Position numbers and translations under genes: made by a program
DNA from: Candidatus Zixiibacteriota bacterium
GTDB lineage: Bacteria > Zixibacteria > MSB-5A5 > GN15 > JAAZOE01
Length of the DNA: 64,000 bases
Direction of reading: 5' to 3'
Assembly (NCBI GenBank): GCA_043819555.1
Contig: JBDREQ010000001.1
Coordinates: 11,451-75,450 of the forward strand
Shown: positions 34,808 through 60,343 of the stretch, piece after piece
Position numbering within the stretch: position 1 is the stretch's first letter
Layout of the letters: the number at the start of each line of letters is the position of its first letter
Notes under the pieces: generated by a model
Seen by the model: the letters and a program-made list of their open reading frames with translations, nothing else
The model's database searches: none
Told to the model about the DNA's origin: nothing

Positions 34808-37800
34808 TTGAAACAATCATCTAAGATTTTTGGAATCCTTCTCATTCTTTTAATTTCATTTACAATTTTAACCATTGCAGAGGATATCAAATACGCAAGA
34901 TATCCGACTTTATCTCCAGACGGTTCGACAATAGCCTTTTCGTATTTTGGAGATATCTGGACGGTACCTTCCGGAGGTGGGGAAGCTACTCGTCTGACTA
35001 TACACGATGCGGTTGACATTCTGCCATTTTATTCACCCGATGGAAAATACATTTTATTCACCTCATGGCGATATAACAATGCCGACGTTTTTGTTATGCC
35101 CGCCGAAGGGGGTGAGGCCCGGCAAATTACCGTCCACACATCATACGATTATGGCAGTGGCTGGACCCCGGAGGGTGACTCGATAATAATTAATTCAGGC
35201 CGGGAAGGGCGCTACGATATATACAAAATCGCCTTATCCGGCGGTACGCCTATTAAATTAACCGGTTATCATTACGCCGCGGAATACAATGGACGCATTT
35301 CTCCTGATGGCAAATATCTCATTTTTAACAACGGTTCTAACCGGTGGTGGCGAAGGGACTTAAAAGCCAGCATTCCTGCCAATATTTATATCCAGGATCG
35401 CGCCGAAGAGAAATTTACATCGAGACGCCTGACCAATGAACCGCGCCATAACCTTTGGCCTATATTGAATGCCGATTTGGGCGAAGTCTATTATGTTTCA
35501 TGCCCGGATGATTGGGCTCAGGTCTGGAAAATTCCGTTTGAAGGAGGAAAACCAAAACCATTAACCAGTTTTAAGGGAGACGGCGTTCAATGGCTCAATT
35601 CCAATCCGCAGGGTAATAAACTTGTTTTCGAACAAGGTTTTGATATCTGGATGCTTGATCCGGTCGAGGGGAAGCCAAAACGGATTCCAATTTCTATTCG
35701 TTCCGATGAAAAATTCAATTTGATTGAAACTAAATCATTTAAAAGTGATGTCGATTGGTACTCTGTTTCTCCTGATGAAAAGAAAATCGCAACGATAATC
35801 CATGGCGAAATATTTATTATACCGTCTAAAGATCCGGAGGAAGGCTTCAGGATCACTAATACCCCATCACGGGAAATTACCCCGGTATGGGGAAATGATT
35901 CCAAAACGCTATATTATTCATCCGACCGCAATGGCAATTATGATTTATATAGCGTCGATGTTACGACCAGAGAGGAAAAACAATTAACTTCATCCGACGA
36001 AAACGATGTCAAACCGCTAGTATCCCCCGATGGCAAATATCTCGCATATTATCGCGGATTGGACAAATTAATGCGATATGATATCGAATCAAGCAGTGAA
36101 ACAACCTGGGTTGAAGGAAATTTTTACGATTTGAGTCTTGAGCAGAACTTTGAGTATGATTGGTCGCCTGATTCAAAATGGCTCACCTTTACAATGACCG
36201 GCCCTACTTATGAAATGCATATTTACGCAATTTCTCTTGACGGCGAGCCTCAGCTTTTATCCAAATCCTCAGGATGGAGCTATAGTCCTCGATTTTCTAA
36301 AGATAGCAAAATAATCTATTTCTCTAACTCTTTTGAGGGGGAAATTAAAACATTTAAAATTGATTTGCGGCATGAGCCTTTTGAATTTTATGAATCATCA
36401 TTCGATTCCCTGTTTATAGAAGGGCCGGAAGATGAGAAGGAAGAAAATGGAAAGGGGAAGAAGGATAAAAAAGACAAAGATAACAAAGATGAATTGGTTC
36501 AAGAAACCTTGATTGATTTTACTCGCATTGAAAAAAGGCGAGCGCTGGCTTTCGATTTATCGGGTTCTAACAGCTCACCCGTATTAACTCCCGATGGCGA
36601 AAAATTCGTATTTATCGCTTCTCTTCTGGAAGATCCGGAAATATGGTCGGTTGACACCGAAGACAAACTCGATCTGAAACAACTGACTCATTCAAAATCC
36701 GAAAAGTCTTTTTTACGCGTTTCGAAGGATTCAAAATCCATCTATTTCCTCGAAGATGAAAAGATTAAAAAAATCGGGATAGACGACAGCAAAATGAGTA
36801 CTGTCAGCTTTTCGGCGGTAATGGATATTGAACTCCCGGAACTCAATCGGCAGAAATTTCAGGAATCATGGCAATTGCTGAATTCGTTTTTCTATGATAA
36901 TGAATTTCATGGCACAGACTGGAATGCCGTCCGAAAAAAATATAAACCTCTTGTGGAGCATGTTCGTTCCGACCGGGAGTTTAGAGATGTCGTCCTTGAA
37001 ATGATGGGCGAATTGAGAGCTTCTCATTTAAGTATATATTCTCGCGATCCCGGACCGAATCGCAATATTGTTACAGCCGAAACCGGCATTATGCTTGATT
37101 ATGTAAATTTGGAGAAATCCGGCGATTTTCGGATTGCCCATGTCATACCTGAATCGCCGGCCGCAATCGCTGGAATTAAGACCGGACAATATATCATTAA
37201 AATTGATGACCATAAATTAAAATCGGGCGATAATTTTTTTTCTTACTTTTCCGGTAAAAATGGTAAGCGTCTGACATTAGCGATCGGAGATAAGGCGGGA
37301 GAAGAAGATACCAGCTTCGCAATTAAGCCAATTTCGAACAGTGAGTTAACCGAACTTAAATATGATGAAATGATAGAAGACCGTAGACGATTGGTAGATG
37401 CACTTTCAGATAATCGATTGGCATACATACACATATCCGCAATGTCGGGTACCTGGCTGCGGAGATTCAAGCAAGAATTAATCGCTTATGCCGAAGAAAA
37501 AGATGGATTAATTATTGACGTCCGCGATAATGGAGGCGGTAATATTGCCGTTCATCTTCTGGGTATGTTGGCCAGAAAACCATTTTTCCTCAGAAGCTTC
37601 CGAGATTTCCCGATTACATCTGAGACCAAATATCGATCAAAGGCTTTCGAAAAACCAATGAACGTTCTGATAAATGGAGGCTCGGCGTCAAACTCTGAGA
37701 TTTTCGCCGAAGGTTTTAGAAAATTGGGATTGGGTAAAGTTATCGGCGAACCGACCGCGGGAGCTGTCATTGGCACCAGCAGCTATACTCTAATAGACGG

Positions 37801-49918: not shown

Positions 49919-50383
49919 TTAGCGGCGTTTCATTGTGCGTTTGGGTGCGGCTTTTCTTTTCATTGCCGTTTTTCTTTTCGGCGCCGCTTTGCGCTTCATC
50001 GCAGTCATTTTCCTGGGAGCGGCTTTTCTTTTCATGGCTGTCTTTCTTTTAGGAGCCGCTTTTTTATTGGTCGCCGTTTTTCTCTTTGGCGCCGCCTTCT
50101 TAGTTGTGGCTGCTTTTTTCAAAGAAAGCGCTACAGCTTTGGAACGAACCGAACTCAAAGTCCTCTTCAGAGCTTTCGCGATTTGAGCATTGGGCGTCAT
50201 TTTATACAGCTTCTTTAATTCGAGAATTTCAGCAGGCGTCCAGAGTTTGGCTTTCTTGACTACTTTTCTCGCAGTTTTTTTCGGAGCTGCTTTCTTCCAG
50301 GCAGTGCGAGCAGGTTTGCGCGCAACCTTTCTCGTCGCAGTCTTTTTCCGTGGCGACGCTTTCTTGTTTGCGGGTTTTCTCAC
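49919..50383 (-). CDS. histone H1-like basic protein with central HTH (Myb/GcrA-like) core
   Basis: K/R/A/T/P-rich tails and only two acidic residues. Core WTPAEILELKKLY...AQIAKALKRTLSSVRSKA. GTG start after GGAGGG. Confidence 0.8.
   Translation of the reverse strand: MRKPANKKASPRKKTATRKVARKPARTAWKKAAPKKTARKVVKKAKLWTPAEILELKKLYKMTPNAQIAKALKRTLSSVRSKAVALSLKKAATTKKAAPKRKTATNKKAAPKRKTAMKRKAAPRKMTAMKRKAAPKRKTAMKRKAAPKRTMKRR
49934..50113 (-). repeat. five tandem 12-aa (36-nt) repeats, consensus TAMKRKAAPKRK
   Basis: AATTKKAAPKRK / TATNKKAAPKRK / TAMKRKAAPRKM / TAMKRKAAPKRK / TAMKRKAAPKRT. Confidence 0.9.
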
Positions 50384-50430
50384 TGAAAAACCCTCCTTTC
50401 AAATTCTCGCATCATTTTCTGAATTGCGAG

Positions 50431-50451
50431 TGTGGTTAATGGTGTGTGAAC
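50431..50451 (+). repeat. 21-nt exact repeat, copy 1 (5' UTR of H1-like gene, antisense orientation)
   Basis: TGTGGTTAATGGTGTGTGAAC, identical to 59227-59247. Confidence 0.97.
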
Positions 50452-50465
50452 ACATTACTTTATCA

Positions 50466-50493
50466 AAAGTAGTTCTTTTTATTTTTAAGTCAA
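50466..50493 (-). promoter_or_regulatory. candidate promoter of H1-like gene
   Basis: TTGACT-N16-TACTTT on the minus strand. Confidence 0.55.
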
Positions 50494-50694
50494 TACTAAA
50501 AACATTATCACATGATTTTTTATTCAGATACTGCATCTTGCGTACAATTTGTGAGCATTGACTCAAACATCATGTTAAACGACCAAGATCATTGGTTGTT
50601 TGCATCAATCTCTTACGCGGAATAAAATAATCTTCTGCTTCGACCGCGAATATATATTGTTCAAAACATTGACGCATCAGGGATGCATGACTAT

Positions 50695-53115
50695 TTACTT
50701 TATATAATCACGCCATGTATCGGCCAGTTCCCCAAGTTTTTGATCTGCCAGAAAATTAATGGTTCCTTCCGGATATTCACCATCATCGTTTATCTCACCC
50801 GCGGGAATGCCGGTCAATAATTCAACGCCTTCATCAATATTTTCAATTGCGTAAATATGGAATTTACCCTCCTCGACCGCTTCGATAATTTCATCTTTAA
50901 GCATCAATTCGACCTCATTCTGCCTGGGAATCAAAACTCCCTGCACCCCGGTCAGGCCGTTAATCAGGCAAGTATCAAAATAACCCTCAATCTTTTGATT
51001 AACTCCTCCGATTGGCTGAATTTCTCCCTTTTGATTTACCGAGCCGGTTACGGCCAATGATTGATTAATCGGTTTATTTGACAGGACCGAAAGCAGGGCA
51101 TAAATTTCTGTCGAAGAAGCCGAATCGCCATCAACACCGGAATACGATTGCTCAAAGCAAAGTGAGGCGGTAAAAACCAGGGGACGTTTTTTTCCGAACC
51201 GGTGGCGCATGAACCCGGTTAAAATCAATACGCCTTTATCATGCAGGCGTCCGGATAATGAGGCTTCGCGTTCTATATTGATGATGCCATCCGCCCCCGG
51301 TGAAAGGGCTGCGGTGATTCGGGTTGGCCGCCCGAAAGAATGCTCTCCCAGGTCATAAACCGATAAACCGTTTATTTGGCCGACTTCCCATCCGGACACA
51401 TCAATAAGATACAATGCCCGCTGGTACATCTCATGCACCTTGGTTTCAACCAGATTGACTCTGTTTTTCTGCATGAGGATTGTTTCTTTTATGATTTCCC
51501 GATCAACTTTGGTTTTTCCTTTTTTTCGAGCCGCCCATGAAGACTCGCGGATGACGTCGGCGATATTGGTAAAGCGCGTTGATAAACGATCATGTCGCCC
51601 GGAAAGTATTACGCCGAATTCTAATAGGGCCGCCAATCCCGAACGATCAATATCTATCAATTCATCTTCGCCAATTATTTTTTTAGCAAATTGGGCATAT
51701 TGATTAATCCCCGGTTCGTCATTATTCATAACATTGTCAAACTCGGCCTTGATCTTGAAAACTTTTTTAAAATCCGCGTCGGCTTGAAACAAAGTATCAT
51801 AGACACGGCTTTCGCCGATTAAAATCACCTTGACATCCAAATCAATTTTCTCAGGTTTCATACCGCCCCCACTAATAAACGGCGTATCGAAATTGGAAAT
51901 AACAAGATGACCAGTTCGTAAGGTTCTCTTTAGCATAGGCCACAGATGGGGATCATTAAACAGATCGACGGCATTTAAAACCATATAACCACCGTTGGCT
52001 TGCAGAATAGAACCGCTTTGAATGCGCGTAAAATCGGACCTCCATCCCGAATCCGGAGAATACACTCGCTCAATCGAGCCGAATAGATTTTTAAAGGTAG
52101 GAAATTCTTCTATAATGATCGGGCGTTTGGTGAATCCATTGTTATCGACTAATAAGTTCACGGTAAAAGCATTTAGCAATGAACGGATTTTGGAAGCCCC
52201 ATCCTGCTCCCCCGGTTCCACACCGGTCCCCCGGAACAAGTCAAGTTCACCAATCAGGATTTCGTTCAAATCTGATAGGTATTCGCGTGTTTTATCATCA
52301 TCATATAAATGTTTGAGAGTTTCTATTTTATCATTTACCAGGGGAATTACCAACGACGCATCAAGCTTATTTAATTTCTCTTCCAATTCTGATGATATTT
52401 TCTTGCTTTGACCGGAAGTCAATTCAAACTGCTTCGATAATCTTTCATATTCGGCCTCCAGCTCCTTCAATTTGATTTCAGGAAATTTACCCTCACCGGT
52501 CAATTTTTCAAGTTCATTCAAAGACACCGGCTTATTATCAACCAGGGGGTGCAGATCCGGCCGTGATATCTGTCCAAATTGAAGCTGAACCAGAACAAAA
52601 CCTTTTTCCTTTAGGTTAGTTTCAAAATCTTTGAATAATTCTTTCTGCCGCGATTCAAACTCGGCAATTATTCGCTCGCGCCGTTGTCGATAATTCTCCC
52701 CCGAAAATATTTTGGGAATTATCGTTACCAAAGAATCTATCAGATAAGAAACGGCCTTCTTAAATTTGCGCCCTTCTCCGGCAGCAAAGTATAATACCCG
52801 CGGAGAATCAGACATTTTGAAATTATTCACATAGCAAATATCTTTTAGTTCGACCGTTTCATCTTTCTCGATTTCGTCCAGAAGGAGCTTTACGGCGGTT
52901 GTCCGTCCGGTGCCGGGCAAACCGGTTACGAATATATTGTAGCCTTTTGATTTTATCTCAAGCCCTAACTCAACCGCGGAAATGGCTCGATCCTGACCGA
53001 TGATCCCGCAGCATGGTTCAATTTCATCCAAATGCATTTGTTCGAGTTTTTTCTCTTCAAATCGATAACGAAGTTTCTCCACTGGAATCCGCCATTTATT
53101 ATTTATTTCCGACAT
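50695..53115 (-). CDS. LonC-type Lon-like protease
   Basis: IIGQDRA and degenerate Walker A GLPGTGRTT. S16 protease domain with GQINGL, DGDSAS (Ser) and GGVNQKIEG (Lys). Confidence 0.9.
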   Translation of the reverse strand: MSEINNKWRIPVEKLRYRFEEKKLEQMHLDEIEPCCGIIGQDRAISAVELGLEIKSKGYNIFVTGLPGTGRTTAVKLLLDEIEKDETVELKDICYVNNFKMSDSPRVLYFAAGEGRKFKKAVSYLIDSLVTIIPKIFSGENYRQRRERIIAEFESRQKELFKDFETNLKEKGFVLVQLQFGQISRPDLHPLVDNKPVSLNELEKLTGEGKFPEIKLKELEAEYERLSKQFELTSGQSKKISSELEEKLNKLDASLVIPLVNDKIETLKHLYDDDKTREYLSDLNEILIGELDLFRGTGVEPGEQDGASKIRSLLNAFTVNLLVDNNGFTKRPIIIEEFPTFKNLFGSIERVYSPDSGWRSDFTRIQSGSILQANGGYMVLNAVDLFNDPHLWPMLKRTLRTGHLVISNFDTPFISGGGMKPEKIDLDVKVILIGESRVYDTLFQADADFKKVFKIKAEFDNVMNNDEPGINQYAQFAKKIIGEDELIDIDRSGLAALLEFGVILSGRHDRLSTRFTNIADVIRESSWAARKKGKTKVDREIIKETILMQKNRVNLVETKVHEMYQRALYLIDVSGWEVGQINGLSVYDLGEHSFGRPTRITAALSPGADGIINIEREASLSGRLHDKGVLILTGFMRHRFGKKRPLVFTASLCFEQSYSGVDGDSASSTEIYALLSVLSNKPINQSLAVTGSVNQKGEIQPIGGVNQKIEGYFDTCLINGLTGVQGVLIPRQNEVELMLKDEIIEAVEEGKFHIYAIENIDEGVELLTGIPAGEINDDGEYPEGTINFLADQKLGELADTWRDYIK

Positions 53116-53312
53116 TGAAAATCCTCCTTATTCACACGAAGTATAATTGATTGGACATGCAAACGCAAAATCTGAACGAAATACTCCATAAATTAGTATA
53201 CGTAAATGATGGCAGGTATTCAATTTTTCGTTTGAGAAATTAAAATTATTTTGATGCCCAGCTTAAGCCAAATGGGAAAGGTAAGAATAGAACAGTAAAA
53301 AGCTGGCCCTTA

Positions 53313-54341
53313 TTACTTGCCATGATGAAAAGCATGAACAGTATCGACCAGGATGTGAACATTTTCGACCGGGGTATCCGGCAGTATTCCATGACCAAGA
53401 TTGAAAATAAATCCATCCATATTCACCGTCGCTTCAAGAATACGGGCTGCTTCCCGGCAGACGAATTCACCGGACCCAAATAATACATGCGGATCGAGAT
53501 TACCCTGGAGGGATTTTCCATCAAGGATCGAAGCGGCCCGCGCAATCTCTGTTCTCCAGTCGATACTGATTACTTCGCATTCAAGCTCGGCAATAATTCC
53601 CAAATAAGGCGTGGTATTATTCACATAGAGAATGCGGGGAACGCCTTCAGTTTTACATATTTCAAACACTGTTTTAATGAACGGAAAAGAGTATTTCTTA
53701 TAAACCTCGGGAGGCAACGCCAGTCCCCAGGAATCGAATAGCTGCACCGCATCCGCTCCAGCCTCAATTTGTGCCTTCAAATATCTGCCTGTTATGTCGG
53801 CCAGATGATTTAGTAATGATGCCGCTTCTGCCGGATAATTATATATGAATTTCTTGGTTTCGGTAAAATTCTGAGTTCCTCCACCTTCGATTAAATAGCA
53901 GGCCAATGTAAAAGGCGCTCCGCAAAAACCAATAAGAGGAATCCGACCGTCGAGGCGTTTTTTTATTTCCTTTATCCCCTGCAAAGGATAAATCATTTCG
54001 TCAACGGGATTATAGGTTTTGAGATTTTTGACATCCTGCGGCGAGCGCACAGTTGGCGCCACGCGCGGTCCTCCATTATCAAATGAGACATCAACACCCA
54101 GCGGCTCCAGCGGAATCAAGATATCGGAAAATAAAATAGCGGCATCAAAACCAAAAATATCAATCGGCTGCATGGTTACTTCCGCGATATGCTCGGGAGA
54201 ACGGCATAGATCCATAAATGATATCTTATCACGGACTGCTTGAAATTCCGGCAGATAACGCCCGGCCTGACGCATTATCCAGATCGGCACGCCTTCATGT
54301 GGCTGACCAAATGCGGCTTTGATAAATTTATAATTTGACAA
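53313..54341 (-). CDS. hemE: uroporphyrinogen decarboxylase
   Basis: PIWIMRQAGRYLPE, AAILFSDIL, QGNLDP and FNLGHGI motifs. Confidence 0.97.
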   Translation of the reverse strand: MSNYKFIKAAFGQPHEGVPIWIMRQAGRYLPEFQAVRDKISFMDLCRSPEHIAEVTMQPIDIFGFDAAILFSDILIPLEPLGVDVSFDNGGPRVAPTVRSPQDVKNLKTYNPVDEMIYPLQGIKEIKKRLDGRIPLIGFCGAPFTLACYLIEGGGTQNFTETKKFIYNYPAEAASLLNHLADITGRYLKAQIEAGADAVQLFDSWGLALPPEVYKKYSFPFIKTVFEICKTEGVPRILYVNNTTPYLGIIAELECEVISIDWRTEIARAASILDGKSLQGNLDPHVLFGSGEFVCREAARILEATVNMDGFIFNLGHGILPDTPVENVHILVDTVHAFHHGK

Positions 54342-54363
54342 TGAGTTCTCCCCGAAAAATCAA

Positions 54364-55641
54364 TTAGGATTTGATGGCCCGGCTGATTTTTTCAGCCGCT
54401 TCATCAAGCATCTCGACGGTATGCACCAGCGATATAAATAATACTTCATAACCTGAAGGAGGTAAATAAATACCGCTATCAAGAATTTTGCGATGGATTG
54501 AATTATATTTTTCAATTGCGGCGGCATCAATCGCGTCGGCACGACGAGGGATATCGGATTGGAACAATATCCAGATAATCGAACCCTGACGAATAATGGA
54601 GCAAACAACGCCATCAAGATTTTGTTTCAAAACTCTTTCAAAATGAGAGCCAAGGTTCTCAAGCCTGGTAAAACCGTCATGACTCTCGAGAACATTCAGA
54701 GTTTCCAATCCTGCGGCCATTGCCACTGGATTTCCCGACAACGTTCCAGCCTGATAGACCGAACCCATGGGAGCGAGTATATTCATTACCTCACTCCTCC
54801 CCCCGAAAGCTCCAACCGGCATCCCGCCGCCAATAACTTTGCCGAATGTCATCAGGTCGGGAATAATATCATACAACTGCGCGGCACCGCCCCAGCCCAC
54901 GCGAAAACCTGAAATAACTTCATCAAAAATCAGAAGTGATCCATTCTTTTCGGTGATGTCGCGTAAGAATTGCAAAAATTCTCGGCGCTGTAAAAGCAAA
55001 CCATTATTGGCCGGAATCGGCTCAATCACGACGCATGCGATTTCGTTTCCGTATTTATCAAAATATCCTTTTACCGATTCTTCATCATCAAGATCGGCAA
55101 TTAGTGTATGTTTGGCAAAATCAGCTGGGACCCCTCCTGAAGAAGGCTTACCTAGCGTCGCCAAGCCGGATCCGGCTTTCACCAATAAATAGTCGCTATG
55201 ACCGTGATAGCATCCATTGAATTTTATTATCTTGTCCCGGCCGGTAAACCCGCGGGCCAAACGAATTGCAGACATAACCGCTTCGGTCCCAGATGAAACA
55301 AACCTGATACTTTCAATTGGGCTGATTTTCCCGACGATTTTCTCAGCAAATTGGACTTCCAACTTAGTCGCTGCTCCAAAAGTGGTCCCCTTCTCTGCCG
55401 TTTTCTTGATTGCCTCGATAACTTCTGGGTAAGCGTGGCCCAATATAAGTGGCCCCCAGCTACAGCAAAAATCGATGAACCTGTTCCCGTCATAATCAAA
55501 TATATATGCTCCCTCGCCTCGTTCTATAAAAAGGGGATTGCCACCAACCGCCGAAAATGCCCGAACCGGGGAATTTACCCCGCCGGGTGTTACTTTTATG
55601 GCACGATTGAATAGTTCTTCAGATTTGTGATAATCAGACAA
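54364..55641 (-). CDS. hemL: glutamate-1-semialdehyde 2,1-aminomutase
   Basis: PGGVNSPVRAF, SGTEA, GCYHGH, FDEV and GKVIGGG motifs. Confidence 0.97.
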   Translation of the reverse strand: MSDYHKSEELFNRAIKVTPGGVNSPVRAFSAVGGNPLFIERGEGAYIFDYDGNRFIDFCCSWGPLILGHAYPEVIEAIKKTAEKGTTFGAATKLEVQFAEKIVGKISPIESIRFVSSGTEAVMSAIRLARGFTGRDKIIKFNGCYHGHSDYLLVKAGSGLATLGKPSSGGVPADFAKHTLIADLDDEESVKGYFDKYGNEIACVVIEPIPANNGLLLQRREFLQFLRDITEKNGSLLIFDEVISGFRVGWGGAAQLYDIIPDLMTFGKVIGGGMPVGAFGGRSEVMNILAPMGSVYQAGTLSGNPVAMAAGLETLNVLESHDGFTRLENLGSHFERVLKQNLDGVVCSIIRQGSIIWILFQSDIPRRADAIDAAAIEKYNSIHRKILDSGIYLPPSGYEVLFISLVHTVEMLDEAAEKISRAIKS

Positions 55642-56614
55642 ACCATTCTCCTTTTAGGGCATCACGCAAATGATAAGTTAATATTATATCGGCGCCGGCG
55701 CGAGTAATGGCCGTCAAATTTTCCAGGACTAATTGTTTCTCGTCAACTATCTTTTCTCTGGCCATAACCTTTACCATTGTATATTCACCGGAGACATTAT
55801 ATGCCGCGACAGGCAGGTCGCAATTATTTCTAAAATCTGAGATTATATCCAGATATGCCAGGGCCGGTTTGACCATTACAATATCAGCCCCCTCTTCAAC
55901 ATCAAGAGAGAGTTCAACCATCGCTTCGCGGCGATTGCGCCAATCCATTTGATATCCTTTGCGATCGCCCTTGCCTGGCGCTGAATTACAGGCATCACGA
56001 AACGGGCCGTAATAAGACGAAGCGTATTTGGCGGTGTATGCCATTATCAGAGTATTGGCAAATCCATTTTCTTCCAGAGCCTCTCGGATTAGGCCAATCC
56101 GTCCGTCCATCATATCCGACGGCCCAAGGCAATCGCACCCCGCCTTAGCCAGAGTCAGAGCCATCCTCCCCAGAATCGGCAGAGTTTTATCATTATCAAT
56201 TTCACCGTTACTAATTAAACCGCAATGGCCGCTATCGGTGTAAGCGCACAAACAAACATCAGCGGAGACAAACAGCTCATCCCCATATTTGTCTTTTAAT
56301 GATCGAACCGCCATTGCGGCAAGCGAGTCGTCACCGATGGCCGAAGATGCTTTTGCATCTTTATGATCAGGAACGCCAAAGAGCATAATCCGGCGAATAC
56401 CCAGCTTATAGTCTTCATCAATCGATTTTAGAAGCGATTCAAGAGATTCGCGGTAGATGCCGGGCATCGATGCAATCTCATGCTTGATTCCATTTCCATC
56501 GCATACAAAATATGGCTGAATCATTCCATCGGGATTTAATCTTGTCTCGGCGAAAGTATCTCTGATAAGTTGAGTCCGCCTTAATCGGCGTGGCCTATAT
56601 ATAAAATCGCTCAT
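55634..56614 (-). CDS. hemB: porphobilinogen synthase (Zn-type)
   Basis: RPRRLR, DVCLCAYT..GHCG, SDMMDG, MVKPA and AYNVSGEY motifs. Confidence 0.97.
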   Translation of the reverse strand: MSDFIYRPRRLRRTQLIRDTFAETRLNPDGMIQPYFVCDGNGIKHEIASMPGIYRESLESLLKSIDEDYKLGIRRIMLFGVPDHKDAKASSAIGDDSLAAMAVRSLKDKYGDELFVSADVCLCAYTDSGHCGLISNGEIDNDKTLPILGRMALTLAKAGCDCLGPSDMMDGRIGLIREALEENGFANTLIMAYTAKYASSYYGPFRDACNSAPGKGDRKGYQMDWRNRREAMVELSLDVEEGADIVMVKPALAYLDIISDFRNNCDLPVAAYNVSGEYTMVKVMAREKIVDEKQLVLENLTAITRAGADIILTYHLRDALKGEWFV

Positions 56615-56669
56615 ATTATCCTCCTGCCCCGATTATTCTCTATTTCATACGCATTAAAATACGGTCAAT

Positions 56670-57572
56670 TCATGCTTTTAATTGACGATAAGCTTCTTCA
56701 ATCATTTCGGCAATATCATTACCCATGACATCGGCTCGTTTCAAGCCGATCCATTTATGATTTTCTTTCAGCCCATAGACTGCGCACAATCGATAATTAT
56801 CGCCTTCAATTCTTGAAAAGGCGCCCAGGGGAAGCTGGCATCCCCCTTCCATGAGCTTCATCAAACCTCGCTCAAGGTCGATCTGAATGCGAGCCGTTTT
56901 ATCATCCAATTGCGATACGATATCAATAACCGGACTATCATTGGCGCGAGTTTGAAGTCCAAGAATACCCTGAGCCGGAGCAGGCAGGAAAAAGTCTTCA
57001 TCCAAAAGTTCCAAATGTAAATCAGACAGGTTTAATTCCAGCCTCTTGATTCCGGCGTAGGCAATGATTATGGCGTCATACTTCCTTTCGCGCAGTTTAC
57101 CGACCCGGGTCGGGACATTTCCACGCAAATCTTTCATTTGTAAATCAGGCTGAATATTAGAAATTTGACACAGCCGTCGAACCGAAGAACTGCCGATTAT
57201 TCCTCCTGATTTTATCTTCAGTGGATTATCCGGAGAAAACGATTCTTTTCGGATGAGCAACGCTTCACGATTATCTTCGCGAAAACCAACCGCAGTAAGG
57301 GCCAGCCCTTCAGGCATAACCGTCTGCAAATCTTTTAAGGAATGAACTGCCAGGTCAATATCATTATTGAGAAGGGTTTCCTCAAGTTCTTTGGTGAAAA
57401 ACCCTTTGCCCTCCATTTTGCTAAAAGACAAATTGGTGATCTTATCGCCTCGCGTTTTAATAATTTTCAGGATTACGGGAAATTTGGTAATGCTTTCCAG
57501 TTGATTCTTTATAAAATTGGCCTGCCACAGGGCCAGATCCGAACCCCGGGTACCAATCCTGATTTCCTGCAC
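56670..57572 (-). CDS. hemC: hydroxymethylbilane synthase
   Basis: IGTRGS.LA, KGFFTKE, AVHSLKD, LRGNV.TR and GGC.LP motifs. GTG start. Confidence 0.96.
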   Translation of the reverse strand: MQEIRIGTRGSDLALWQANFIKNQLESITKFPVILKIIKTRGDKITNLSFSKMEGKGFFTKELEETLLNNDIDLAVHSLKDLQTVMPEGLALTAVGFREDNREALLIRKESFSPDNPLKIKSGGIIGSSSVRRLCQISNIQPDLQMKDLRGNVPTRVGKLRERKYDAIIIAYAGIKRLELNLSDLHLELLDEDFFLPAPAQGILGLQTRANDSPVIDIVSQLDDKTARIQIDLERGLMKLMEGGCQLPLGAFSRIEGDNYRLCAVYGLKENHKWIGLKRADVMGNDIAEMIEEAYRQLKA

Positions 57573-58895
57573 CTACGCTCCTTTGCGAAATGCCTCAACC
57601 TGAACCAATTGCCCATAACGAATGGACATCAATTCGGCGCCGGTGTCAGAATTATTTCTCGAGGATATTCTATCGGCCATTGTCCGGGCCGGTAGAAAGG
57701 TCGAATAACTTACCAATTTATTAACCAGGTGAGCAATCCGTTTTCGGTCTGATTCTTCAAGGTGGGACAAATTCTTATTAAATAAACTTTCCAGACCCTT
57801 ATCGGCATACTCTTTCGCCTGCTGATACGATACACTGAAAACGGGTTTTAACTCGTTTTCAATCAAACTCTGATGATACCGAACCACCTCGGCAGAAATA
57901 ATGGCACGCGCCTTATCCACATCACGGAATCGCTGTTTCCGATTTTGTTCCGAAATTGTCTTTAAGGCTGGAATATTATAGATTTTTAGCCGATTATCAA
58001 CAGAATTTTCCAGTTCATCATCAACGTCACAAGGAATCGCCAAATCTATAAGAAGTAAATCTTTATCTTGGGCCAAAAGGTTTTCTGTTGAAGATCTGGT
58101 AAAAATCGGATCGGGGCTCGAAGTTGCTGTGCAGATAATTCGTACGTCGGGCGGACTATTCAAAAAGTCATTAAGCGAGATTGCCCGCCCGCCGTACTTT
58201 TCTACAAACGGTTGCGTATTGTTAACCGTGCGGTTAACAAATACCAAGTCGCTGACATCATTTTTTGTTAAAAAATCAGCCAGCTTGTGTGACATTTCAC
58301 CGACGCCTATCAAGGCTACGGGCACTTTGCCCTCTTTTTCAACCACATCTTTAATTAAGGAAGTAACTAATGATACCATTGAGACTGATTTTTTACCCAT
58401 CTCGGTCTCAGTCCGAATTTTCTTGGCAACCCGGAACGCCTGCTGAAATATTCTACCAAGGCCATCCCCTACCAAATCATTCTCCAGCGCGTAGAAATAA
58501 GCGTCTTTCACCTGGCCCAAAATCTGTGCCTCGCCAATTACCAAAGAATTAATTGCGCTGGCAACAGAAAATAAATGACGAACTGATTCAAGACCGAATT
58601 TGCAGTATAAATCATTGGGAGAAATACTCTGGCTATCCTTATTCTGGAAAAAGAAATCAAGTATTTTATTGCGAACCGCATTAACTCCGGTTGAATTAGT
58701 GGCAGTAAAGATAAATTCGACTCTATTACAGGTTGCCAAATAAACCAGCTCGTCGATTCCAGCCAGTTTTTTTAGCTTTTTCAGTTTTTCAACTCTTGTT
58801 TCCGTGTCTATGGTTAACTCTCCCATAAGCTTAACACTATGGGATCCACATCCCTGGTTACAAACACTGACTCCCACAACTCCAATAAACTGCAT
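57573..58895 (-). CDS. hemA: glutamyl-tRNA reductase
   Basis: TCNR.E, S.VIGE.QILGQVK, IG.GEM, NRT and DLAIP.D motifs. ATG 58895 follows GAGGG. Confidence 0.93.
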   Translation of the reverse strand: MQFIGVVGVSVCNQGCGSHSVKLMGELTIDTETRVEKLKKLKKLAGIDELVYLATCNRVEFIFTATNSTGVNAVRNKILDFFFQNKDSQSISPNDLYCKFGLESVRHLFSVASAINSLVIGEAQILGQVKDAYFYALENDLVGDGLGRIFQQAFRVAKKIRTETEMGKKSVSMVSLVTSLIKDVVEKEGKVPVALIGVGEMSHKLADFLTKNDVSDLVFVNRTVNNTQPFVEKYGGRAISLNDFLNSPPDVRIICTATSSPDPIFTRSSTENLLAQDKDLLLIDLAIPCDVDDELENSVDNRLKIYNIPALKTISEQNRKQRFRDVDKARAIISAEVVRYHQSLIENELKPVFSVSYQQAKEYADKGLESLFNKNLSHLEESDRKRIAHLVNKLVSYSTFLPARTMADRISSRNNSDTGAELMSIRYGQLVQVEAFRKGA

Positions 58896-58938
58896 TAAAT
58901 CGCCCTCATTGTATTCAAAACATGGTTCATAGCAGGAA

Positions 58939-58978
58939 TTTATAAAATCAGATCGCAATAATGTCATGATTTTGTCAT
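58939..58978 (-). promoter_or_regulatory. candidate hem operon promoter with duplicated ATGACA hexamer
   Basis: ATGACA-N5-ATGACA-N17-TATAAA on the minus strand. Confidence 0.5.
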
Positions 58979-59184
58979 ATTTTCGGGAATTTTGATATTT
59001 TTGTATTCTTTTTTGGAAAAATCAAAGCCCGCTTTAAAGAATTATCTCAACCTAAGTCATTAGAATAAAGAAGGTTTTCAAACAAGACAGTTTTAATCAA
59101 CTATTTAATTACCCCGCAATAGATTAGTCAGATGAGTTTTCAATTGATTCCAAATTATTGTCACGAGATTTTAAAACAAGATTA

Positions 59185-59212
59185 TTGACTTAGGCCAAAA
59201 TGGCCGTATATT
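59185..59212 (+). promoter_or_regulatory. promoter of leader RNA + tRNA-Glu
   Basis: TTGACT-N16-TATATT. Confidence 0.65.
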
Positions 59213-59217
59213 TGATT

Positions 59218-59297
59218 ACCCTCCAATGTGGTTAATGGTGTGTGAACTCCACAAAGGAAGGATACGCCCGGGCTTTACAGCTCGGGCAAAAATTTAC
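59218..59297 (+). ncRNA. structured tRNA-Glu 5' leader, candidate trans-acting antisense sRNA
   Basis: ACCCTCC (anti-SD), then TGTGGTTAATGGTGTGTGAAC (59227-47) within a TGTGG/CCACA stem-loop, then a GCCCGGGC/GCTCGGGC hairpin. Confidence 0.55.
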
Positions 59298-59372
59298 GGC
59301 GGTATCGTCTAGTGGTTAGGACGGGTGGTTCTCAGCCATCAAACCGGGGTTCAATTCCCCGTACCGCTGCCA
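59298..59372 (+). tRNA. tRNA-Glu (anticodon CTC)
   Basis: Cloverleaf: acceptor GGCGGTA/TACCGCT, D-arm GTCTAGTGGTTAGGAC, anticodon arm GGTGG-TTCTCAG-CCATC, T-arm CGGGG-TTCAATT-CCCCG, encoded G-CCA. Confidence 0.96.
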
Positions 59373-59386
59373 AACTCTGTGGAAGT

Positions 59387-59425
59387 GGGAGCATAAATCC
59401 TTGAAAGGGCTGAAGCTCCCCTTTT
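59387..59425 (+). terminator. probable terminator after tRNA
   Basis: GGGAGC...GCTCCC hairpin followed by CTTTT. Confidence 0.55.
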
Positions 59426-59647
59426 ATATTAATGAGAATTCTATCGCCAAATTCTAATATCCAACATTAAGCCGCTCAGTAGCAGTTTGCATATGCCGAA
59501 TAATATGTCGTTGTTAAATTCCTCATCAATCACGTTTTAGCTTCAATGCACTTGCGGGCCTAATATTCGGCAATTATATTGTAACAACAAAAACTGAAAA
59601 ATCGGTTTTTATTAATAAGCCAAATACTCACAACAAAGGGGGACAAT

Positions 59648-60343
59648 ATGCTCACATGCAAAACTAAACTTTGGAGTATTCTTGTTATCATCGTCATACT
59701 GATTGCGGCGTCTCAGGCATTTGCTGGCGAACCCATTAATTGGACGGGCTGGTATGCGGGAGCTTTCGGCGGCTATATTTCCGGCAAGCTTAATTCCAAT
59801 GATCCTTTGCATGAAGAATCAACCGGGGATTACGACGACGATAGTCCTATGGCTGGCATCAGCATTGGATATCACCGCCAATATGAAAACGACTGGGTTG
59901 CCGGTGTCGAGGTTATGCTGCCACTTTACATACAGAAAGGAACAGCGGTCGACAAGCAGTACTTTCCCGATACGGTCACCTACGAGGCTGACTACCGCTA
60001 TGGCCTGCTTGTTGCGGCGAAAGGGGGACGCAGTTACGGTAAAGCGCTACCCTATGCATTCGGCGCAGTAGGTTTCACCAATGTAGACGGCAAAACCTTC
60101 AACGTCGACCTTGAAGAGAACTACTCGCCGGGATTCGAGCAAAGTGCGGCGGCAGCGCATTTCATCTGGCAGCTCGGGGCAGGGATCGACTATCAGGCCA
60201 GCGAGGTTGTGTTTATGGGAGCACGGGTGGCCGCTTTCATAGGGGCGCGGGCTGATCACACGATGCCGTGGAATGAGCCCGGACCGAATGAGTTTGGCTA
60301 TAACTCGGTATTAGTGCAAATCAACGGCGGTTACAGATTCTAA
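59648..60343 (+). CDS. small outer-membrane beta-barrel protein (Omp25/OmpA-like)
   Basis: Signal peptide, NWTGWYAG, LPYAFG.VG, W.LGAGIDY, and terminal GYRF. Confidence 0.8.
   Translation: MLTCKTKLWSILVIIVILIAASQAFAGEPINWTGWYAGAFGGYISGKLNSNDPLHEESTGDYDDDSPMAGISIGYHRQYENDWVAGVEVMLPLYIQKGTAVDKQYFPDTVTYEADYRYGLLVAAKGGRSYGKALPYAFGAVGFTNVDGKTFNVDLEENYSPGFEQSAAAAHFIWQLGAGIDYQASEVVFMGARVAAFIGARADHTMPWNEPGPNEFGYNSVLVQINGGYRF

Follow-up and report, generated by a model that had tools for sequence, protein, structure and literature searches.

The stretch of DNA analysed here (hereafter, the window) comprises 64,000 nucleotides from the genome of a Candidatus Zixiibacteriota bacterium (designated G000). 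It contains a gene for tRNA-Glu with the anticodon CUC, preceded by a predicted 5´ leader, and a gene for a small basic protein on the opposite strand (Table 1). The leader and the 5´ untranslated region (UTR) of the basic-protein gene share the 21-mer TGTGGTTAATGGTGTGTGAAC, which is found at two sites, both intergenic and both on the + strand. As RNA, the leader copy (the seed) is the exact complement of the UTR copy (the target site). The preliminary description of this DNA had reported this pair, as well as the order of promoter, leader and tRNA-Glu around its second copy, and both points were borne out by a mismatch-tolerant search of the window, the tRNA call and a promoter scan. No further match with three or fewer mismatches was detected within the window, two matches were obtained in none of 100 shuffles, and the pair is the only repeat of 18 nt or longer in the window. 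The whole 3.35-Mb assembly of G000 contains the 21-mer at exactly two sites, again with up to three mismatches allowed.

At the sequence level, the leader is encoded within the primary transcript of the tRNA, with one conserved promoter upstream and a start predicted to lie near position 59218. This promoter is the best sigma-70-like match in the interval 58950-59650 (10 of 12 positions), and TTGACA-N16/17-TATATT is present at the equivalent place in all 14 genomes of the family to which the window belongs (f1, which includes G000 and in which every genome has the tRNA-Glu gene and an orthologue of the basic-protein gene). Between the promoter and the tRNA, the scan listed no promoter-like or terminator-like site, and the GC-rich hairpin P2 was not called a terminator. 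The 3´ end of the leader would be created by RNase P cleavage at 59297/59298. In the leader's own fold, the anti-Shine-Dalgarno (anti-SD) box ACCCUCC is paired with GGAAGG (59256-61), the loop that carries the seed is closed by UGUGG (59227-31) and CCACA (59249-53), and P2 probably stabilises the 3´ end. G000 has two tRNA-Glu genes, one with the anticodon CUC and one with UUC. When the leader and UTR regions were compared with Rfam, only the tRNA family was matched, at the gathering score or at E ≤ 1.

On the target side, the promoter of the basic-protein gene was missed by the strict consensus scan because its -10 box matches at only three of six positions. Among the 13 family orthologues, most show TTGAC(A/T)-N16-TAnnTn upstream of the motif, and the -10 box is weak or unclear in G004 and G009. 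The target site lies 48 nt upstream of the GTG start codon in the window. Between the target site and the Shine-Dalgarno (SD) sequence, a hairpin of unrelated sequence occupies the same place in 12 of 13 minimum-energy folds of the family, and in G013 the stem forms part of a longer helix. Cofolding of the leader with the UTR predicts the 21-bp duplex together with an ACCCUCC:GGAGGGU helix, the UTR hairpin being looped out. The complex is favoured by -27 kcal/mol relative to the two RNAs folded alone. Read from the sequence, the elements named in the preliminary description (anti-SD/SD pair, UTR hairpin, UGUGG/CCACA stem and GC hairpin) lie where it had placed them, and the proposed two-part interaction is reproduced by the cofold. 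With RNAduplex, the whole leader against the UTR gave -46.2 (shuffled leaders: mean -27.5, sd 4.8, minimum -49.0), a comparison that is uninformative since the program allows long internal loops; for this reason, the cofold and the lengths of exact matches were relied on instead. The start codon itself lies in the loop of a small hairpin, UUUUUC-GUG-AGAAAA (window 50370-50400), formed by the spacer between SD and start and by codons 2-3; this hairpin is common to most f1 orthologues.

Table 1. Positions, within the window, of the elements of the leader-target pair and of neighbouring genes.
Feature	Position	Strand	Description
Promoter of leader and tRNA-Glu	59185-59212	+	-35 TTGACT (59185-90), 16-nt spacer, -10 TATATT (59207-12)
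Predicted ~80-nt 5´ leader of pre-tRNA-Glu(CUC)	59218-59297	+	candidate antisense RNA
Anti-SD box ACCCUCC, leader 5´ end	59218-59224	+	complement of SD GGAGGGU
Seed 21-mer	59227-59247	+	core GGUUAAUGGUGUGUGAAC in ~17-nt loop
GC-rich hairpin P2, GCCCGGGC / GCUCGGGC	59266-59287	+	then AAAAAUUUAC, no U-tract directly after
tRNA-Glu (anticodon CUC)	59298-59372	+	ARAGORN; Rfam tRNA 57.4 bits; single copy
Basic-protein promoter	50466-50493	-	-35 TTGACT (50493-50488), 16-nt spacer, -10-like TACTTT (50471-50466)
Target site GUUCACACACCAUUAACCACA	50431-50451	-	near mRNA 5´ end, about +10 to +30 from predicted start
UTR hairpin CUCGCA...UGCGAG	50406-50430	-	arms 50406-50411 and 50425-50430; between target site and SD
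SD GGAGGGU and GUG start	50396-50390, 50383-50381	-	read from sequence
Basic-protein gene	49919-50383	-	154-aa open reading frame, GTG start, Lys/Arg/Ala-rich
LonC/LonB-like protease gene	50695-53115		
hemA-hemC-hemB-hemL-hemE block	53313-58967	-	between LonC and tRNA-Glu(CUC)
Predicted exported protein, 1120 aa	46487-49849	+	
Predicted exported protein, 1021 aa	60928-63993	-	

The comparison of related genomes speaks for an interaction between the two RNAs. With up to three mismatches, the 21-mer was detected in 9 of the 13 other f1 genomes vs 1 of 87 genomes of the order's other families, and f1 genomes usually carry two same-strand copies, 9-11 kb apart; G007 has a form with a 1-nt deletion. 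The leader motif was recovered in 11 of the 14 f1 genomes, always between the promoter and tRNA-Glu. These 11 leaders follow a common plan: promoter, about 6 nt, a CCCUCC-like box, a UGYGG arm, the core GGUURAUGGUGUGUGAAC, a CYRCA arm, a GGRRGG box, the GC hairpin, AAAnnUUU and the tRNA. The CCUCC-like box is present in 10 of them (CGUCC in G005) and the P2 hairpin in all 11, with three covarying inner pairs. The arm that closes the seed loop varies between CCACA and CUGCA, either of which pairs with UGUGG. In the consensus structure, 90.2% of the cells are paired vs 27-55% in slid controls, and the covariation score of 0.248 was reached by only 3 of 500 shuffles. In the leader of the sister species G001 (locus L027), 10 nt directly preceding the seed are duplicated in tandem (GATGTGGTTA), which extends the leader to about 90 nt and leaves the 23-nt match with the UTR undisturbed.

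The UTR side has varied along with the leader. Its 18-nt core, GTTCACACACCAT[TC]AACC (RNA: GUUCACACACCAU[U/C]AACC), is present in all 10 orthologues recovered from genomes with the leader motif and is decayed in the three genomes without it (G004, G006 and G010). A genome search for a relocated antisense partner in these three found only the UTR copy itself. Downstream of the core, the 10 UTRs share the arrangement seen in the window, with a hairpin of unrelated sequence (clear in 9 of 10), the SD and, in most, a start-codon hairpin. Measured within each genome, the perfect complementarity of leader and UTR runs without a break for at most 21, 23, 21, 22, 21, 21, 18 and 21 nt in eight f1 genomes, 13 nt in G011 (split by an A.C) and 15 nt in G013 (split by a G.U), and only 5, 5 and 7 nt in the three motif-less genomes. 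The borders of the duplex move between genomes and its length stays near 21. At seed position 8, leader and UTR read A/A in six genomes and G/G in G003, G012 and G007; in G013, a leader G stands opposite an mRNA U, which makes a wobble pair. As G007 is not sister to G003 and G012 on the LonC tree, in which the basal nodes are weak, at least two coordinated changes or reversals are required at this position. The LonC proteins of the genera compared share just 60-69% identity, and the intergenic sequences around the core have all diverged, yet the core itself does not vary.

Third copies of the motif were traced to an HU-type gene, where they lie in the 5´ UTR (MTKEQLIERMAKEANISK...). In all seven crown-clade genomes (G000, G001, G002, G003, G009, G011 and G012), a full or partial motif lies 2-4 nt upstream of GGAGG, an order colinear with the leader's layout of anti-SD plus seed. 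It is weak in G007 and absent in G005, G008 and the three motif-less genomes. The HU site of G012 carries the C variant proper to that genome. Duplex energies between leader and HU mRNA range from -31 to -42 kcal/mol in six crown genomes and reach -24 in G001 and -25 in G007, compared with -10 to -16 in the motif-less genomes; a paralogous HU gene, taken as a control, gave -13 to -21 kcal/mol. Among the 631 GGAGG-N4-9-ATG windows of G000, the HU site ranks second by its duplex with the leader.

A second pairing, between the same leader and the same gene and of different sequence, was found in the sister family f3. In 64 of 71 f3 genomes, the tRNA-Glu(CTC) gene is present; it lies right beside LonC, in divergent orientation, with no hem genes between. 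The f3 leader measures about 30 nt (...GUUGCUUUUUUAGCAUUGCGCAUUGAAU-tRNA) and reads as the reverse complement of the sequence around the start of the basic gene downstream of LonC (GGAGGAUGUUCAAUGCGCAAAGCUAAAAAGC, with the AUG inside). The complement spans -5 to +16 or beyond around the AUG, and its sequence differs from the f1 seed. When the whole ~13-kb locus was searched for complements of the leader, the longest was found at this start region in 7 of the first 11 f3 loci. Altogether, 62 f3 loci were fetched, 44 of which have the element; 37 of them, with three or fewer differences from the consensus, were tested, and 35 were anchored, leaving out 7 of the 44 with 4-5 differences and then L232 and L256, which lack a leader anchor. 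The 18 loci without a pair comprise three with no tRNA match to the regular expression, five with no LonC in the stretch and ten with no element within 700 nt downstream of LonC.

The f3 duplexes reach up to 29 contiguous base pairs. Their energies average -35.2 kcal/mol for cognate vs -31.1 for non-cognate combinations, and all of 10,000 permutations fell short of the cognate mean. Pairing is kept in 33-35 of the 35 loci at 19 of the 22 tabulated positions (-5 to +16). Five standard pair types occur at position +11, the third base of an Ala codon, and position +5, the third base of an Arg codon, has GC in 32 loci, AU in two and AC in one. The 29 deviating core cells consist of 6 compensated Watson-Crick pairs, 17 G.U pairs and 6 mismatches. 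At position -5, U.G is found in 29 of the 35 loci, that is, the two DNA sites differ and yet the RNAs pair. The wobble bias and the co-variation at synonymous sites point to selection on the RNA duplex and not on a DNA site. Co-conservation and compensatory changes were among the checks named in the preliminary description; the pair is co-conserved in f1, with one covarying position, and in f3 compensatory and wobble changes keep the pairing. A conserved mismatch, mostly A opposite A, stands at position +8 (third base of codon 3), in the middle of the ~25-bp duplex; it is paired in 2 of the 35 loci and is absent from L238 and L256, where the duplex is fully paired. This mismatch may serve to adjust how stable the duplex is or how RNase III cleaves it.

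The f3 target genes fall into three classes, almost all of which start with MRKAKK or a near variant. Class A, the majority, combines a basic arm with a C-terminal Cys motif: among loci L229-L295, the gene after LonC encodes Lys-rich proteins of 50-112 aa ending in R-C-x2-K-T-K-x-G-K-x-C-K-R-F/Y-T-D-G-K-S-K-x-C-S-x-H-K-K, which looks like a small zinc-binding knuckle on an arm resembling the histone H1 tail. Class B combines a basic arm with the same central helix-turn-helix (HTH) domain as the protein of the window. Class C, with at least 13 loci (L236, L237, L239, L249, L250, L261, L264, L270, L279-L281, L286 and L292), retains only an open reading frame (ORF) of 5-40 codons, in most cases without an SD and with the AUG preceded, at 48-50 nt, by a promoter. 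The element that pairs with the tRNA-Glu leader is kept in this class, including lineage-specific CUCUUU/AAAGAG pairs, and terminator-like hairpins follow in the three loci whose downstream sequence was read. To judge from these sequences, class C looks like a small RNA gene that has taken the place of the basic gene and kept its pairing. In two of the five class-C genomes searched (G091 and G047), a class-B gene (148 and 152 aa) with the same start-region element is found elsewhere, and the protein-coding target thus persists there.

In families f4 and f2, the link was not recovered: family f4 has short leaders in the eight loci examined and no basic-protein gene after LonC in the seven loci with LonC, and the tRNA-Glu(CTC) query matched none of the five f2 genomes. 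As f3 pairs the same leader with the same gene, the association of leader and gene is older than family f1. On the sequences compared, f1 has replaced both the pairing sequence and the target site, which is now the 5´ UTR plus the SD instead of the AUG, and its leader has gained two hairpins, as expected for an RNA that would have to survive after its release.

Taken together, these data suggest that the leader acts by base pairing, an idea supported by its conservation, co-variation and co-loss in f1 and by compensatory evolution and the permutation test in f3. As a conserved trans-antisense partner of nucleoid-protein mRNAs, the leader is well supported by sequence comparison. The explanation that we regard as probable is that the tRNA-Glu(CUC) leader is a trans-encoded antisense RNA directed against the mRNA of the LonC-linked Lys-rich HTH protein and, in part of f1, against the HU mRNA, with translational repression as the most likely outcome. 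A possible sequence of events is as follows. Transcription from TTGACT-N16-TATATT would yield the ~80-nt leader joined to the tRNA, and RNase P would free it at 59297/59298. The leader would fold into a 5´ stem-loop and a 3´ GC hairpin, with 18-21 nt of seed in the loop and the anti-SD CCCUCC hidden in the stem. The seed would then base-pair within the 5´-terminal ~30 nt of the target mRNA; once the stem had opened, CCCUCC would be free to pair with the SD, brought alongside by the looped-out UTR hairpin, and ribosome binding would be blocked. Because the duplex is perfect and at least 21 bp long, cleavage by RNase III is also likely. The output of DNA-binding protein would fall as transcription of the tRNA gene rises. 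Genes for RNase III and the bacterial type-A RNase P RNA are present in G000, and Hfq (PF17209) was not found in this genome, which is 97% complete, under a search that detected it in control genomes. Long perfect duplexes without Hfq would fit an RNase III-assisted antisense mechanism.

Several points weigh against this explanation. We infer the transcription starts, the release of the leader and its stability from sequence, and the repression, the RNase III step and the physiological logic have the same footing. The conservation of CCCUCC may be structural and not related to the SD, since the box pairs with GGAAGG inside the leader. Seed variation within f1 is small, with one covarying position; in G011, a G-to-A change in the leader produces the A.C mismatch with its own UTR, and the HU sites of G002 and G009 contain one A.A mismatch each. 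In the leader, the basic-protein UTR and the HU UTR, the motif starts about 14-24 nt after the -10 box, which a DNA operator would also show. At least 13 f3 loci keep the element although the ORF has shrunk to a mini-ORF, which simple repression does not predict. Finally, the genomes compared are kin and not independent, so that the counts and the permutation results exaggerate how many events took place; kinship by itself, however, does not create complementarity.

The same pairing could act chiefly in the reverse direction, or both ways, if the mRNA 5´ region (or the f3 small RNA) controls the processing or stability of pre-tRNA-Glu or sponges the freed leader. RNase P needs a single-stranded leader, and the f3 duplex ends 0-4 nt from tRNA position +1, where a helix should hinder the enzyme; the class-C loci, with their mini-ORF and lost SD, would be explained as well, and in f1 the tRNA gene stands head-to-head with hemA, which encodes glutamyl-tRNA reductase. 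We nevertheless consider this unlikely, given that the f1 duplex lies 50 nt from the RNase P site with a strong hairpin in between, and that an anti-SD together with sites adjacent to the SD (basic-protein and HU mRNAs) or covering the AUG (f3) is a geometry needed by a translational repressor and not for tRNA processing; the class-C genomes G091 and G047, moreover, retain a full-length target gene elsewhere. A more ambitious version, also unlikely in our view, is an order-wide mutual RNA switch in Zixibacteria, in which the pre-tRNA-Glu(CUC) leader and the 5´ ends of nucleoid-protein mRNAs titrate each other, a small RNA descended from the mRNA substitutes in some lineages, and one pairing sets both nucleoid-protein synthesis and tRNA maturation or supply. 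If true, it would be the first case of tRNA maturation governed by a trans antisense partner and the first tRNA 5´ leader acting as a conserved regulatory RNA. We give rather little credence to a real pairing whose outcome is not repression, that is, a leader that stabilises or activates the mRNA by protecting its 5´ end or remodelling the UTR. Such a role would suit the position of the main f1 duplex, at the extreme 5´ end of the mRNA and about 35 nt upstream of the SD, and a start codon already held in a small conserved hairpin that remodelling could open. The geometries are occluding, however: the anti-SD is conserved beside the seed, the HU motif abuts the SD and the f3 duplex covers the AUG.

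Two further readings dispense with RNA pairing. The shared sequence could be a DNA operator just downstream of the tRNA-Glu, basic-gene and HU promoters, possibly bound by the HTH protein itself. The similar distance from the -10 box in all three contexts and the nature of the target gene are compatible with this, and a change in protein specificity would shift both sites together. It is very unlikely all the same, since the 18-nt core is asymmetric, with no dyad, and without exception reads sense in the leader and antisense in the targets. Besides, the flanking RNA stems of the leader are kept through wobble-compatible changes, one-sided core changes in f3 are biased to G.U (17 vs 6 mismatches), the prevalent -5 pair is U.G, and the co-variation affects synonymous third-codon positions. 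The pair might, lastly, be a chance repeat or a functionless neutral remnant of an old inverted duplication. The prior for one 21-nt pair in 64 kb is near 1e-3, which is not zero across many windows; with a core that is invariant across genera while its flanks have diverged, co-variation, co-loss and the second pairing of different sequence in f3, the comparative data strongly disfavour this reading, which is scarcely credible.

The product of the target gene had been described beforehand as histone-H1-like, and on this point the interpretation has to be amended: the conserved complementary pair and the loop-presented seed stand and are extended by the f3 pairing and the HU site, whereas the H1 likeness is one of composition only. 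The N-terminal arm of the protein is rich in Lys, Arg and Ala, residues ~48-88 form a three-helix HTH, and the C-terminal arm repeats the pattern KRKxAxKRKAAP, this last arm being encoded at 49935-50100 on the minus strand as repeats of KRKTAMKRKAAP, with 16-17-nt direct DNA repeats at 49947 and 50019. It is not an H1 homologue, as the folded part is modelled as a three-helix bundle and no winged-helix globular domain was found; only the Lys/Ala/Pro-rich arms resemble H1 tails. No match to Pfam or NCBIfam was obtained even at E ≤ 10, including Linker_histone and GcrA, and the homologues are hypothetical proteins without names. The HTH signature W-T-x-x-E...L...L/IA..L...V..K can be read from their alignment.

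The protein was modelled with AlphaFold2 (AF2) on an alignment of 48 sequences. Confidence is high, with a predicted local distance difference test (pLDDT) score of ~95, only in the three helices of residues ~48-88. Foldseek searches with this model gave no hit at E ≤ 0.001. In geometry, the DNA-binding domain of Caulobacter GcrA (5yiu) comes closest, with a template-modelling (TM) score of 0.80, a root-mean-square deviation of 1.0 over 44 columns, 36% identity and an E-value of ~1, which is not significant. It is followed by the Myb-like 2llk, other Myb-like domains and homeodomains, also with Foldseek E-values of ~1. On the model, the protein is best described as a small HTH protein with basic arms like the H1 tail, whose folded part resembles the GcrA/Myb type. 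It is probably nucleoid-associated, and a role in DNA condensation is plausible.

The closest functional analogue appears to be IhtA of Chlamydia. According to two reports, this small RNA (sRNA) represses the histone-like HctA (hctA) and a second small basic DNA-binding protein (CTL0322/ddbA); it acts independently of Hfq through a loop seed at the start codon, with functional pairing of 6-7 nt around the AUG, and its gene lies between sctC and tRNA-Thr, with its own promoter and rho-independent terminator (PMC3469542, PMC4355289). Both RNAs present a seed in a loop and target the translation-initiation regions of mRNAs for small, very basic DNA-binding proteins, with a second target of the same kind. 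In the present case, these regions are the SD plus the 5´ UTR (f1), a site next to the SD of HU (f1) and a site covering the AUG (f3), and the likeness is functional, not one of membership. IhtA is described there as an independent gene, unlike the present leader, which is part of a tRNA transcript where P2 is followed by AAAAAUUUAC and then by the tRNA, with no terminator called. The two also belong to different phyla, and Hc1 is unrelated to a GcrA/Myb-like HTH with basic arms. The Rfam comparison, in which no family besides tRNA was matched, gave no sign of homology to IhtA, although the presence of an IhtA model in Rfam was not checked.

By biogenesis, the closest known RNA seems to be 3´ETS-leuZ of the E. 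coli glyW-cysT-leuZ operon, which is cited in two publications as a tRNA 3´ trailer that sponges sRNAs (PMC13501541, PMC9514646). It is released by RNase E, and the sRNAs sponged are the Hfq-dependent RyhB and RybB. Like the present leader, it is a spacer of a tRNA transcript that acts by base pairing and whose amount tracks tRNA transcription. It differs from the present RNA, which is a 5´ leader with predicted release by RNase P, has an mRNA 5´ region as its partner with a complement of 18-29 nt, and occurs in a genome where no Hfq gene was found. The features of Hfq-dependent trans-encoded sRNAs are not seen here either: no Hfq was found, the seed is a perfect 18-23 nt, and there is no U-tail. 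CopA/CopT, RNAI/RNAII and type I antitoxin RNAs such as IstR-1 combine a loop seed, a perfect duplex of ~20 bp or longer, a block of the ribosome-binding site and, usually, cleavage by RNase III. These antisense RNAs are independent transcripts, mostly cis-encoded or linked to plasmids or toxins. The present antisense RNA is instead part of a tRNA precursor whose gene lies 9 kb away from the target, and would be directed at housekeeping nucleoid proteins.

To our knowledge, tRNA leaders cut off by RNase P have been treated as waste, and among bacterial tRNA spacers with a regulatory role only one, a 3´ trailer acting as an sRNA sponge, has been studied well; we also know of no cultured members of, and no described sRNAs from, the phylum Zixibacteria. 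The table of tRNA-derived bacterial sRNAs in a 2026 review includes no 5´ leader that regulates an mRNA (PMC13501541). A literature search on antisense sRNAs from tRNA leaders and on small RNAs of Zixibacteria, in which subscription journals were not covered, yielded nothing relevant. In the present case, a tRNA 5´ leader seems to regulate, as a conserved antisense RNA, the mRNAs of proteins that organise DNA. If this is true, chromosome-packaging proteins would be wired directly to the transcription of a tRNA gene, by a logic convergent with the developmental IhtA/HctA switch of Chlamydia. It would also provide a natural case of seed turnover, in which the same two genes stay paired although each sister family uses a sequence and a target site of its own, and tRNA leaders would be worth a general genome screening for regulatory complementarity.

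Wider searches placed the motif within Zixibacteria-type kin. An 18-mer scan of a genome contig collection (596 Gb) returned 36 stretches, about half of them from such kin; the remaining scattered stretches (Deinococcus, Rhodoferax and others) were disregarded as near the number expected by chance (estimate ~35). Two loci with three mismatches each, L003 (G033) and L022 (G003:C14), were set aside as apparent coding sequence with its context missing. The CCATTAACC site at about position 35558 of the window was also rejected: it is not a start region and lies inside a 1053-aa ORF, and the genome contains its 9-mer 31 times, which is close to chance expectation. In a metagenome scan with the LonC alignment, 80 loci were obtained (41-54% identical), none of which carries the f1 motif in a meaningful context at up to four substitutions; tRNA-Glu adjoins LonC in four of them.

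As regards the neighbourhood, the basic-protein gene lies directly downstream of the gene for the LonC/LonB-like protease, a linkage kept in 13 of the 14 f1 genomes. G000 also has a paralogous basic HTH gene outside the window (contig C71:30809-31108, L056), which encodes 121 aa with a WTREEI motif; no match to the leader seed was found upstream of it, and the pairing is thus specific to the LonC-linked copy. The hem block that separates LonC from tRNA-Glu in the window is oriented with hemA head-to-head with the tRNA promoter. Glutamyl-tRNA reductase, the product of hemA, consumes Glu-tRNA for haem synthesis. Since the tRNA directly adjoins LonC in f3 and f4, the block was inserted in the lineage of the window. 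The two predicted exported proteins of Table 1, both very large, flank the region. The 1021-aa protein has many Asp-rich repeats of the calcium-binding type, PKD-like segments and a dockerin-like C-terminus, and the 1120-aa protein has a peptidase-MA domain and PD40 beta-propeller repeats.

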